Shown here: positions 3,744-49,540 of the stretch, in pieces
Layout: each line of letters starts with the position of its first letter
Numbering within the stretch: position 1 is the stretch's first letter
DNA from: Candidatus Omnitrophota bacterium
Lineage (GTDB): Bacteria > Omnitrophota > Gorgyraeia > JABMRN01 > RBG-13-46-9
Assembly (NCBI GenBank): GCA_043817155.1
Contig: JBDRHE010000075.1
Span: forward strand, 1-60,588
DNA: 60,588 nucleotides
Direction: 5' to 3'
Position numbers and translations under genes: made by a program
The notes under the pieces: generated by a model
What the model was told of the DNA's origin: nothing
What the model saw: the letters and a program-made list of their open reading frames with translations, nothing else
The model's database searches: none

Positions 3744-3962
3744 CTCGAAGGACGCACGTTACGATAGACGAAGGACGATTCGTGATTCCTCGTCTTTGCG
3801 AAGTGCCGTAATATACTAAGCGCACTGAAGCATCTCAAACTAGCTCGAATGAGATTGCCTGCCTGCCCGCCAAAGCTTTTAAATGGCAGGCGGGCCTGCC
3901 AGTATATTTCGGGCAGGCAGGCTTCGGCACGCTCGAATATTCCGGTGCCTCGCAAAGACGAG
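3741..3962. repeat. Composite: GACGAAG-type arm, then F1 inverted repeat (3789-3962) with a 64-bp CCTGCCTGCC...GGCAGGCAGG hairpin at 3858-3921
   Basis: ctcgtctttgcga...gaagca and gagattg[insert]cttcggcacg...tcgcaaagacgag arms; the insert is identical to 7750-7813 and 7869-7932. Confidence 0.95.
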
Positions 3963-4832: not shown

Positions 4833-5819
4833 ATGGCAAAGGTTTATCGAGACAAAGATGCTAATCTGGAACTGATCAAGAAGAAGGTGGTGGCTATTAT
4901 TGGGTATGGCATACAGGGACGGGGACAGGCTCTAAATCTTAGGGATTCAGGGATAAAGGTTATCGTAAGCGAGCTCGAAGGTACGCAGAATTACAGGAAT
5001 GCGGTAAAAGATAAATTCAAACCCGTTTCAGCAGACATCGCGGCAAAGAGCGCCGACATTATACAGATATTAACACAGGACCATGTACAGGCAAAGGTGT
5101 ACAAGTCAATGATCGAACCGAATCTAAAAACCGGGAAAGCCCTGGTATTTTCGCACGGTTTTAATATCCATTTTAAGCAGATCGTGCCACCAAAATATAT
5201 TGATGTGTTTATGATAGCACCGAAGGGACCGGGAGCTTTAGTCAGACAGCAGTATGAAGAAGGCAAAGGCGTACCGTGTCTGGTGGCTATATATCAAAAT
5301 CCCTCAGGAAAAGCCCTGAAACTGGCGCTGGCTTATGCTAAAGGTATTGGCGGAACAAGGGCAGGAGTAATTAAGACCACCTTCAAAGAGGAGACCGAGA
5401 CTGACCTGTTTGGTGAACAAGCAGTTCTATGCGGTGGGGCATCGGAGCTTATTAAAGCCGGATTCGATACCCTGGTGAATGCCGGATATCAGCCGGAAAT
5501 TGCATATTTTGAGTGTCTTCACGAATTGAAACTGATAACGGATCTTATCTACAGATACGGTATTCAGGGTATGAGAAAGAGGGTTTCGGATACTGCAGAA
5601 TACGGGGATCTCAGCAGAGGAAGAAGGATAATTACACAGGAGACCCGGAAAGCCATGAAGACTATGCTAAGGGAAGTTCAGACAGGGAAATTCGCTAAAG
5701 AGTGGATAAAAGAGAATAGCAAAGGAAGGCCCCGGTTCAACAAATGGTCAAAAGCGGATGACAGGCATCCGGTAGAGGTGGTAGGCAAGAAACTCCGCAA
5801 GATGATGCCGTGGCTCTAA
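4833..5819 (+). CDS. ilvC: Ketol-acid reductoisomerase
   Basis: 328 aa; [20 protein letters not shown] and [16 protein letters not shown] motifs. Confidence 0.97.
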
Positions 5820-5833
5820 CGCTAGATAATTAA

Positions 5834-6121
5834 GCTACGATAGACGAAGGACGTGGGACGATTCGCTCTATCTCGTCTTTGCGAGGTGCCGTAAATAAAT
5901 TAGCGCACCGAAGCAAACTTCTGTCATCCCCGCGCAAGCGGGGATCCAGAGTGAACTCGTTGAGAGTGCATCCATGGATTCCCGCTTCCGCGGGAATGAC
6001 AACTTTAGATTGCTTCGGCACGTTCGAATATTCCGGTGCCTCGCAAAGACGGATAGGAGAAGATCTAATCGTCCATCGTCCAAGCGACCGTAAGGGAGCG
6101 GACGTCCGTCGTCCTTCGTAA
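5834..6121. repeat. Three-layer composite: GACGAAG arms (5834-5862, 6067-6121) around F1 arms (5872-5915, 6007-6050) around an F2 GTCATCCCCGCG...CGGGAATGAC palindrome (5923-6000)
   Basis: Each layer is bounded by its own inverted arms; a small extra hairpin-like insert gcgaccgtaagggagcg sits in the right outer arm. Confidence 0.95.
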
Positions 6122-7654: not shown

Positions 7655-7998
7655 AACGCAGATCGGCACAGGCTGTATTTCTCGTCTTTGCGAGGTGCCG
7701 TAAATAGCTGAGCGCACCGAAGCAATCTCAAACTAGCTCGATGAGATTGCCTGCCTGCCCGCCAAAGCTTTTAAATGGCAGGCGGGCCTGCCAGTATATT
7801 TCGGGCAGGCAGGCTTCGGCACGCTCGAATATTCCGGTGCCTCGCAAAGACGAGGAAAGATGAGATTGCCTGCCTGCCCGCCAAAGCTTTTAAATGGCAG
7901 GCGGGCCTGCCAGTATATTTCGGGCAGGCAGGCTTCGGCACGCTCGAATCTTACGGTGCCTCGCAAAGACGAGTTAAGCATCTGCGCTCATCTGTGTT
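7655..7998. repeat. CACAGAT/ATCTGTG outer arms around F1 with a tandemly duplicated right arm, each copy carrying the 64-bp insert
   Basis: F1 left arm 7681-7729; right arms 7743-7854 and 7862-7973. Confidence 0.95.
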
Positions 7999-15795: not shown

Positions 15796-16146
15796 CTCGA
15801 AGGAGTAACGTTACGACGGACGTAAGACCCTCCTTCGCTTGGCAGGAAGAATCTCATGGAAGTGGGCTACGGAGGGCAAGTGTGGGAAGAAGGACGATTA
15901 GCGCTATCTCGTCTTTGCGAGGTGCCGTTAATAGGTAAGCGTACCGAAGCAATTTGTCATTCCCGCGGAAGCGGGAATCCAGGCGGAAATGACAAATACA
16001 TTAGAAAGATACACTTCTGGATCCCCGCTTCCGCGGGGATGACAGAATAGTGGAGATTGCTTCCTCCTTCGCCACATTGCTTCTGCGTGTGGCTTGGGAG
16101 AGACAAGCCGGCACGTTCGAATTTTCCGGTGCCTCGCAAAGACGAG
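15793..16146. repeat. Composite: GACG-type arm with a REP-like insert (15829-15881), F1 left arm (15908), F2 (15956-16043) and F1 right arm with a second REP-like insert (16064-16109)
   Basis: The interrupted host motifs can be rebuilt from intact copies (cgtaagacgtgggacg at 10870; gagattgcttcggcacg at 17619/44222). Confidence 0.92.
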
Positions 16147-17514: not shown

Positions 17515-17757
17515 TATGACGGACGATGGACGAAAGACGATGGACGATTCAATTCCCTCGTCTTTGCGAGGCACCGTAAAATTCGAGCGTGCCGAAGCAA
17601 TCTCATTCGAGCTAGTTTGAGATTGCTTCGGTGCGCTAACCTGTTTACGGCACCTCGCAAAGACGAGATAGCGCGAATCACCCTTTGTCCCTCTTCCATC
17701 ATCCATCTTAAGTTTACTATTAAATTCACGTCTCATGTGTCTTGTGTCCTTGTGTCG
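17515..17757. repeat. GACGATG arms around an F1 in the opposite orientation (17557-17667), plus a CTTGTGTC arm
   Basis: The ggcac/gtgcc arm comes first and the ggtgc/gcacc arm second; empty loop. Confidence 0.92.
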
Positions 17758-28979: not shown

Positions 28980-29370
28980 GACGAAGGATGATTTGACGAT
29001 ACCGGAAATACGATTGATATACAATTGAAATACATTGAAATGCGATGGAGATACGATTGAAATATGGTGGAAATGCAATCGAAGCTACATTACTCGTCTT
29101 TGCGAGGCACCGTAAATAGCTGAGCGCATTAAAACGACTTCTCTTCGTCTTTGCGAGGAACCTATGAAAGCTTTATGTTCCGAAGCAATCTCAGACTTCT
29201 GTCATCCCCGCGCAAGCGGGGATCCAGAGTGAACTCGTTGAGAGTACATCCATGGATTCCCGCTTCCGCGGGAATGACAACTTTAGATTGCTTCGGCACG
29301 CTCGAATCTTACGGTGCCTCGCAAAGACGAGGGAAAATCTAATCGTCCATCGTCCGTCATCCATTGTAAC
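28975..29370. repeat. Composite: GACGAAG arms around a 10-mer TTGAAATAC run, two F1 left arms (29093, 29145), F2 (29201-29278) and an F1 right arm ending at 29331
   Basis: The F2 plus right arm is nearly identical to 5923-6050. Confidence 0.93.
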
Positions 29371-34535: not shown

Positions 34536-34850
34536 AAGCTACGAAGGGCGTGGGATGATTAGCACTATCTCGTCTTTGCGAGGTGCCGTAAATAAATTAG
34601 CGCACCGAAGCCCCGCCGCATGTTTCGCATAGCGGGATCCCGCCATACGAGAGTAACGGCGGGACAATCTCAAACTTCTGTCATCCCCGCGAAAGCGGGG
34701 ATCCAGAATAGGCGCGTAGAGAGTCCATCCATGGATTCCCGCTTACGCGGGAATGACAAGATGCATTAACCTGAGAATACTTCGGCACGCTCGAATCTTA
34801 CGGTGCCTCGCAAAGACAGTTAGGTTAATATCTAGTCGTCCATCGTATCG
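34536..34850. repeat. Composite: GACG-type arms around F1 (34569-34817), with a 54-bp double hairpin in the left arm (34611-34664) and F2 (34680-34757) in the loop
   Basis: cgaag[cccgc...gcggg a tcccgcc...ggcggga]caatctc. Confidence 0.92.
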
Positions 34851-44100: not shown

Positions 44101-44452
44101 GCACAGATGGGTAAGCTACGAAGGACGATGGACGAAGGACGAAGACGAATTGTAATTGCTCGTCTTTGCGAGGAACTTATGAAAGCTTTATGTTCCGAAG
44201 CAATCTCAAACTAGCTCGAATGAGATTGCTTCGGCACACTCGAATTTTACGGTGCCTCGCAAAGACAGGGTTAGATGAGATTGTCCCGTCACACGCAAGT
44301 AGCGTCGGGAAAGAAGAAAGCAAGCCAAAGTCTATAGTCTTCAGTCTGTAGTCTTTAGTCTATAGTCTGGCTTAGAGCTTAAGGCTAAATTTAATTTATT
44401 AGAATTCTGCGTCATTCGTGTTTAAACGTTAGATCTGTGCTAATCTGTAGTT
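44088..44452. repeat. Composite: CACAGAT outer arms around a GACGAAG arm, F1 (44159-44266), an orphan GAGATTG plus TCCCG...CGGGA hairpin (44284-44310), and TAGTCT and GCTTA arms
   Basis: Read directly. Confidence 0.9.
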
Positions 44453-49362: not shown

Positions 49363-49540
49363 GTCACAGATGAGCGCAGATTTTATTACAAGGCACTGTA
49401 ATACTCGAAACGTGACTAAGTAATTCCTGATTCGTCTTTGCGAGGCACCGAAATATTCGAGCGTGCCGAAGCAATCTCTGCGAGCTAGTCTGAGATTGCT
49501 TCGGTGCGCTAAGTGATTTACGGCACCTCGCAAAGACGAA
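49363..49540. repeat. CACAGAT arm plus an empty F1 in the inverted orientation (49431-49540)
   Basis: Same arrangement as 17557-17667. Confidence 0.92.

Follow-up and report, generated by a model that had tools for sequence, protein, structure and literature searches.

Repeat arms with a covarying distal hairpin in an Omnitrophota genome are probable single-stranded DNA sites of an Ssn-type GIY-YIG nuclease

The F1 repeat arms of this Candidatus Omnitrophota genome are conserved letter by letter in their flanks, and within them only the pairing of the inner helix is conserved. The covariation of this inner stem survives correction for the relatedness of the copies, and we consider it probable that the arms are bipartite hairpin sites of Ssn type in single-stranded DNA (ssDNA), with a sequence-free distal helix, for a 95-aa GIY-YIG nuclease encoded in the genome. 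In Neisseria, the repeat NTS (CGTCATTCCCGCGMAVGCGGGAATCYRG) and related SRM hairpins border genes for single-domain GIY-YIG (Ssn) proteins of about 94 aa, which bind the motif as ssDNA only, not as RNA or dsDNA (Chenal et al. 2025, Nat Commun, PMC11893778). The suggestion made in the initial annotation, of a hairpin bound by protein as ssDNA, has now a concrete candidate partner, an Ssn-type GIY-YIG nuclease whose gene is flanked by the arms. The genome comprises 1.93 Mb in 92 contigs (45.5% G+C), and the window, that is the whole stretch of 60,588 nucleotides analysed here, is contig C75.

In general, an arm consists of GTCTTTGCGA, a 5-bp stem, a loop, the complementary stem strand and GAAGCAATC. 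A single arm folded as DNA is predicted to pair TTGC with GCAA and, beyond a GA/GAA internal loop, to form the 5-bp stem with its loop, at -6.7 kcal/mol. The canonical unit, a doublet, reads GTCTTTGCGA, GGTGC-loop-GCACC and GAAGCAATCTC, then a spacer, then GAGATTGCTTC, GGCAC-loop-GTGCC and TCGCAAAGAC. Genome-wide, there are 391 exact copies of GTCTTTGCGA, 242 recognisable arms and 124 convergent arm pairs, with a modal length of 104-105 bp. Four stem haplotypes, each perfectly paired, were counted 84 (GGCAC/GTGCC, A-type), 79 (GGTGC/GCACC, B-type), 16 (AGTGC/GCACT, C-type) and 8 times (GGAAC/GTTCC, D-type), while mismatched variants reach at most three copies apiece. Since the loops of the four types have the letters CG(T/G)AA...AGC in common, the stem types are homologous, and point changes, not exchanged modules, set them apart. 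Among the copies, the stems are nearly invariant; variation is found in the spacer, in the A loop and at the centre of the B-arm loop (40 distinct B loops among 56 copies). The centre of the B-arm loop (6-8 nt; for example at 7699-7713 and 17626-17640 of the window) is far more variable than the remaining, near-identical element.

The focal element is a complete F1 doublet at 3789-3962 (+ strand), made of a terminal inverted repeat, two inward arms, a spacer and one nested insert, and it lies in the ilvB-ilvN gap, within the ilvBN operon. Its 13-bp terminal inverted repeat is CTCGTCTTTGCGA/TCGCAAAGACGAG, its arms measure about 43 nt each and its spacer 14 nt. The left arm is C-type (3792-3836, SRM-sense on the + strand) and reads, after CTC, GTCTTTGCGA (3792-3801), AGTGC (3802-3806), the loop CGTAATATACTAAGC (3807-3821), GCACT (3822-3826) and GAAGCATCTC (3827-3836); its distal hairpin (3802-3826, +) has a 5-bp stem and a 15-nt loop. 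The spacer AAACTAGCTCGAAT (3837-3850) occupies the position held by the GIY-YIG gene in a full cassette. Between the spacer and a nested palindrome stands GAGATTGC (3851-3858). The palindrome itself, CTGCCTGCCCGCC...GGCAGGCAGG, covers 63 bp (3859-3921), belongs to another repeat family and interrupts the right arm between GATTGC and CTTCGG. This right arm is A-type (3922-3959, SRM-sense on the - strand) and reads on its own strand GTCTTTGCGA-GGCAC-loop-GTGCC-GAAG, with its GCAATCTC end left at 3851-3858, on the far side of the insert. By ascending position its letters are CTTC, GGCAC (3926-3930), the loop, GTGCC (3945-3949), TCGCAAAGAC (3950-3959) and GAG, and its distal hairpin (3926-3949, -) has a GGCAC/GTGCC stem and a 14-nt loop.

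The nested palindrome (CTGCCTGCC...GGCAGGCAG) holds a further palindrome inside it, and a 2-bp GC duplication may border it. The same composite is found in about 15 other doublets (for example at 7684-7851), at the same arm bond GATTGC^CTTCGG and with many different left-arm loops, so that the composite is either propagated as a whole or has arisen by repeated hits at one site. Ahead of the focal doublet, positions 3744-3788 form an outer shell of heptamer-like repeats (GACGAAGGACGATT...), of which there are 92 sites genome-wide. This shell precedes many F1 doublets and also houses unrelated inner modules; the repeat families are layered by nesting.

The exact string GTCTTTGCGA occurs 22 times in the window, on both strands, as nine convergent pairs and four unpaired arm ends. 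Besides the focal element, the doublets are a B arm followed by an A arm at 5875-6050 (+), with an NTS-like doublet nested in the spacer; a 168-bp doublet at 7684-7851 (+), with the same nested palindrome as the focal one; doublets with inserts at 15911-16143 (+; nested inserts) and 34572-34817 (+); a D-type arm with an A arm at 29147-29328 (+); and canonical doublets at 17560-17664 (105 bp, -; B arm on -, A arm on +), 44162-44266 (105 bp, +; D-type arm and A arm) and 49434-49537 (104 bp, -; B arm on -). The stems quoted in the initial annotation do differ between copies while staying paired, namely ggtgc/gcacc at 7694, agtgc/gcact at 3802, ggcac/gtgcc at 17570 and 49444, and ggaac/gttcc at 29157 and 44172. 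Its description of one uniform arm layout applies to the ten window matches of the exact arm pattern, which had 0 matches in 100 shuffles, but the focal copy departs from it: the left arm ends in GAAGCATC, with a deletion of one nucleotide, instead of GAAGCAATC, and the right arm is split by the insert.

Covariation was scored on an alignment of 129 distinct arms, in which the helix takes columns 11-15 and 31-35. Three of the five stem pairs vary on both sides (GC 105 / AU 15; UA 80 / CG 37 / AU 7; GC 80 / AU 44). None of 500 shuffles reached the observed covariation score, and controls with slid columns collapsed. Substitutions were then mapped by Fitch parsimony onto a FastTree tree. With a tree of all columns, same-branch changes of partner columns numbered 5 where 0.30 were expected, and the average for non-partner stem columns was 0.25; when the stem columns were left out of tree building, 21 were counted and 1.55 expected. 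The covariation, which might have been lost once the phylogeny of the copies was counted, therefore survives. The broader proposal that structure and not sequence is conserved has to be narrowed: it describes the distal stem, which covaries and is paired in 97.7% of cells, but the letters themselves are kept in GTC, in the outer stem of 4-5 bp, in the GA/GAA internal loop and in the 3' C.

Matched changes of this kind might also be a mutational by-product. Intrastrand template switching at replication can perfect imperfect palindromes by copying one side to the other (quasipalindrome correction), a process said to have been established in E. coli by Ripley in 1982 and by the Lovett laboratory. 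Indeed, all co-changes end in a Watson-Crick pair, intermediates are rare (13 G.T and 7 A.C among 1090 cells), and the loops, which template switching could not correct, are the variable parts. However, the longer arm-to-arm palindrome should be equally favoured for perfecting, yet the two arms of a doublet carry the same distal stem in 0/52 pairs of this genome and in 0/36 metagenomic cassettes. The restriction of high copy number to paired haplotypes, and the presence of arms beside nuclease genes, would also be left without explanation. We therefore regard it as unlikely that the process accounts for the pattern by itself; as it would still need a hairpin in ssDNA in vivo, it complements the nuclease-site explanation more than it replaces it.

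The difference between the A and B arms concerns two adjacent base pairs, changed on both strands, such that the own stem of each arm stays perfect whereas pairing of arm to arm would contain two G.T and two A.C oppositions. Among the matches listed for loci of multiple phyla, only 4/40 doublets have the same distal stem in both arms. Local pairing within each arm is thus what is kept, not pairing between arms. Since long perfect palindromes are unstable in bacteria, their avoidance is another possible reason for the heterology. For the whole doublet as ssDNA, the predicted energies are -44.8 kcal/mol for the arm-to-arm foldback, -29.5 kcal/mol for a four-way junction and -11.3 kcal/mol for two arm hairpins. 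This predicted preference for the foldback counts against the reading as local hairpin sites; given this preference, local hairpins, if they matter, would form when one arm at a time is exposed or when protein is bound. A cloverleaf, that is the doublet as a perfect four-way junction, was considered and set aside, being possible but less stable than the foldback, and unneeded once the arms are taken as SRM hairpins.

The arms extend well beyond this genome. The pattern GTC(A/T)TTGCGA ... GAAGCAATC is present in 18 of 31 related genomes, with highly varied inner hairpins, and an exact scan with one genome per species returned at least 120 contigs with arms; Chloroflexota, Pseudomonadota, Bacteroidota isolates, Patescibacteria, Planctomycetota and many more are represented among the matches listed. 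The same 23 conserved letters thus recur in many bacterial phyla around inner hairpins of hundreds of kinds: constancy of sequence is seen in GTC, the proximal stem, the internal loop and the 3' C, and the distal helix may be as small as the mini-hairpin GCGAAGC or have a stem of 11 bp or more. Pairing of the inner inserts was scored by in-register pair counts, as z-scores of minimum free energy are uninformative when many inserts are mini-hairpins such as GCGAAGC. For the 169 distinct inserts of the multi-phylum loci, again among the matches listed, 66% of positions paired in register against 28% after shuffling, and runs of at least four pairs were found in 37% against 1.8%. The 175 distinct inserts of metagenomic cassettes were likewise far more self-complementary than their shuffles.

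A further line of evidence is the gene found between the arms. The genome contains about a dozen small GIY-YIG frames. One of them (C12:23279-23563) encodes a single-domain protein of 95 aa that matches PF01541 at 64 bits, and it stands between two B-type arms upstream and three inward A-type arms downstream. A paralogue 71% identical to it (C8:847-1125) has an F1 arm downstream. The arm-gene-arm layout was also found in the related genomes G028 (73% identity) and G004, and on a Planctomycetota contig (62%). Among 80 metagenomic loci coding for proteins of 51-73% identity, a sense GTC(A/T)TTGCGA arm stands no more than 160 nt upstream of the gene in 46, and in 45 an inward arm follows within the first 170 nt downstream. 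Next to the gene there are 4.7 arms per kb, a density that falls to 0.2-0.6 per kb at greater distance, and a reversed control motif occurred 0-1 times. Co-occurrence at the level of genomes is partial, in that several metagenome-assembled genomes (MAGs) of relatives have arms but no close homologue of the gene. This counts against the proposed pairing of arms and nuclease, although assembly gaps at repeats may be the reason. Searches against NCBIfam and PDB sequences gave generic GIY-YIG similarity only (the UvrC N-terminal domain and UPF0213 BH0048), and the 95-aa C12-type protein is here termed a putative nuclease of the Ssn clade (CDD cd10448). An indirect pointer to this clade is its 52% identity to a paralogue on C37, whose flanking repeats have the stem and flanks of the Neisseria NTS.

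Two side observations concern the surroundings of these genes. At C8:847-1125 and in G004 (locus L140), the GIY-YIG gene lies directly 3' of the same conserved open frame, which may be the C-terminal end of an IS66-family transposase. In the Planctomycetota contig CAYWBA010000025.1 (L017), the cassette (5022-5419) stands between two direct copies of a segment of more than 100 bp from the 5' region of the adjacent host gene, and represents an insertion accompanied by a long duplication of the target.

The GIY-YIG gene is the only gene found between F1 arms, which does not suit the reading of F1 as an ordinary miniature inverted-repeat transposable element (MITE), whose 43-bp terminal inverted repeats would be mobilised by a DDE transposase and whose inner stems would be incidental. 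With its inverted terminal repeats, small size, high copy number and intergenic position, F1 would agree with a MITE. Incidental stems would not covary, however, and the two 'terminal repeats' differ systematically inside. Moreover, no target-site duplication is evident in the flanks, where the boundaries are obscured by the nesting of many copies in other repeats and by the GACGAAGGACGATT shell. We hold such an origin to be highly improbable.

Very little probability is likewise given to F1 being a REP/REPIN family moved by a RAYT (Y1 HUH) transposase. Two inverted hairpin units with a short spacer do resemble a REPIN, and the genome has five frames similar to PF01797 Y1 transposases (C88:365-700, C22:26442-26663, C52:7-201, C6:20719-20886 and C24:8297-8494; IS200-like or RAYT-like). 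Yet the 3 kb around each of the five is free of F1 arms, and on this ground the candidate was rejected; the arm head is GTC and not the GTAG/GTGG of REP; and letters common to many phyla with a varying hairpin are the reverse of lineage-specific REP-RAYT pairs. Both systems have inverted hairpin doublets in very high copy number, and the gene of a presumed single-strand-specific enzyme flanked by its own repeats, but they differ in the fold of this enzyme (GIY-YIG instead of HUH-Y1), in the head and in the sharing of letters across phyla.

The relation of F1 to the Neisseria repeats is closer. In the system of Chenal et al., the Ssn cut falls a few bases upstream of the motif, cutting depends on the three bases 5' of the NTS palindrome, and binding on the C that directly follows it (PMC11893778). 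F1 and NTS have a common frame, GTC-(A/T)TTGC...GCAAT-C in the former and CGTC-ATTCCCGCG...CGCGGGAAT-CYRG in the latter. As in SRM, the F1 hairpin is oriented, with GTC(W)(Y) on the 5' side and a C immediately 3' of the palindrome, and inward repeats are found on both sides of an approximately 95-aa single-domain GIY-YIG gene (on C12, in G028, on the Planctomycetota contig and in metagenomic loci). When the published SRM search string, HGTCWYN(0-2)YYVSBRH...RNCYNB, was run as a regular expression over the whole genome, it matched 177 sites (96 GTCATCCC and 72 GTCATTCC), and neither an F1 arm nor a GTCATTGCGAG arm fitted it. This string is an operational search tool and not a definition of the class. 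The strings ATTGCGA and AGCAATC are absent from the main text of PMC11893778, and a literature search with the literal repeat strings returned unrelated primer matches only.

The genome itself also contains repeats of the classical type. On C37, a paralogue with 52% identity has GTCATTCCCGCGGAAGCGGGAATC upstream, which differs from the Neisseria NTS core in the loop alone, and an inward-facing GTCATCCCCGCGGAAGCGGGGATC downstream; a further 53 genomic copies, with CAA or AAA loops, match the NTS core exactly. Other relatives of the protein are accompanied by the proximal stems ATTAC/GTAAT, ATTCT/AGAAT, ATCCT/AGGAT and ATTCCCGC/GCGGGAAT, each with its matching partner. As judged by these sequences, F1 appears to be one specificity class among several, outside the published SRM pattern, and for this reason we rate it as a variant of the SRM kind and not as a plain member. 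It resembles the NTS/dRS3 repeats and SRM of the SsnA-family systems in having hundreds of copies, mostly intergenic, and its host genome also has classical NTS-like repeats beside the 52%-identical paralogue. It differs from them in its bipartite hairpin, where a short stem of conserved sequence and a GA/GAA internal loop are followed by a distal helix that is free in sequence and variable in length, and in its dominant form here, a gene-less 104-bp doublet with heterologous arms. In the window, the doublet at 5875-6050 contains at 5919-6007 a nested NTS-like doublet whose arms, GTCATCCCCGCGCAAGCGGGGATC and GTCATTCCCGCGGAAGCGGGAATC, differ by a compensated change of a T-A to a C-G pair, which extends the rule of heterologous arms to a second family.

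When the palindrome of the Neisseria site was altered with the hairpin kept, the activity of SsnA was abolished (PMC11893778). A fully sequence-free helix would thus be without precedent in that family; a conserved proximal part with a free distal part is compatible with this result. We favour, as probable, a two-part site for the cognate nuclease. The proximal module (5' GTC, the 4-5 bp stem (A/T)TTGC/GCAA(T), the purine GA/GAA internal loop and the 3' C) would be sequence-specific and would be read by a 95-aa single-domain GIY-YIG nuclease, for which C12:23279-23563 and C8:847-1125 are the candidates. By analogy with Neisseria SsnA, the enzyme would bind the folded strand and place its nick on the 5' side of GTC, at a distance of a few bases. 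For the distal helix, a 5-bp stem capped by a loop of 14-15 nt, it would be enough to close the hairpin and act as a clasp; its letters would then be free while paired, so that copies with matched changes could persist and multiply. The 104-bp doublets would represent gene-less miniatures of the arm-gene-arm cassette.

Two other known systems offer partial parallels. Integron attC sites are recognised as folded single strands, as is proposed here for F1, and in both, much of the stem is kept as pairing and not as sequence, with short conserved end motifs; F1, unlike attC, has no R''/R' GTTRRRY core sites, no integrase and no cassette array at attI. The Neisseria intergenic mosaic elements (NIME) similarly have short spacers between inverted hairpins of dRS3/NTS type, and are nested and arrayed intergenically. 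They differ from F1 in repeat sequence and organism, and their spacer is a variable RS unit, whereas that of F1 is fixed at 13-14 nt.

A more far-reaching version of this model can be put forward only tentatively, and we would sooner doubt it than rely on it. F1 might be a second, bipartite class of Ssn site, made of an invariant clamp of about 23 letters (GTC-ATTGC-GA...GAA-GCAAT-C), near-identical across phyla, and an exchangeable distal hairpin; the gene-less doublets might be non-autonomous mobile elements, copied in a strand-specific and replication-coupled manner by the 95-aa GIY-YIG nuclease acting in trans. If true, mobility would proceed on a single strand by 'nick and copy', a pathway separate from those of HUH and DDE enzymes, and the free distal helix would be a natural handle to reprogram GIY-YIG enzymes. 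Ssn nucleases were first described in 2025, and their recognition rules were stated to be an open problem (PMC11893778). The natural variation of the repeats tells the letters to be kept (GTC, the 4-5 bp stem, the GA/GAA loop, the 3' C) apart from a helix for which pairing is enough, and gives a testable model of recognition and a possible design handle for ssDNA tools. Moreover, a very widespread repeat, missed by the SRM string and a source of recurrent pseudo-peptides in hypothetical proteins, can be placed with a specific nuclease clade. In this MAG, F1 accounts for a large share of the intergenic DNA, of the false ORFs and of the contig breaks.

The doublets show a strong orientation with respect to neighbouring genes. 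Where both neighbours were called, 97 of 105 doublets lie between co-directional genes, and the B-to-A polarity of the doublet matches that of the neighbouring genes in 81 of 91 cases (81:10). A arms are antisense to local genes (68:10) and B arms sense (61:11); when all types are considered, arms of B, C and D type are sense and those of A type antisense. This orientation bias would also fit selection at the RNA level, that is, elements acting as RNA, co-transcribed in operons, with hairpins serving as signals for processing, stability or translational coupling and stems kept by selection on the RNA fold. The focal copy, being inside the ilvBN operon, would agree with this. The bias, however, may reflect the replication strand: 91% of neighbouring gene pairs are co-directional and the strand skew tracks the gene strand with r = 0.94, so that effects of replication strand and of transcription are inseparable in this genome. 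G.T intermediates (13) are not clearly above A.C ones (7), and Rfam 15 at the gathering score gave 0 matches in the 60.6-kb window, its E-value mode on one element returning only chance-level miRNA hits. Selection on RNA would also leave unexplained the tie to a nuclease family that ignores RNA (PMC11893778). Taken together, these points make a role as RNA quite unlikely as the main explanation, and the reading as ssDNA sites is preferred.

With regard to the focal copy, 247 bp separate ilvB from ilvN here, against 2-109 bp among seven genomes of the same family in which the distance was measured; in at least two more genomes of the family, ilvB and ilvN abut or overlap. F1 is absent from every ilvB-ilvN gap printed for same-family genomes. 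Given the longer gap here and the F1-free gaps in the family, the focal element is DNA that was inserted inside the operon.

Finally, shorter GIY-YIG genes are present at C88:16269-16541, C24:7503-7718 and C24:11328-11564, beside sequences like tRNA 3' ends and hairpins of the form TCCCGCCG...CGGCGGGA; these represent a type of cassette different from F1.
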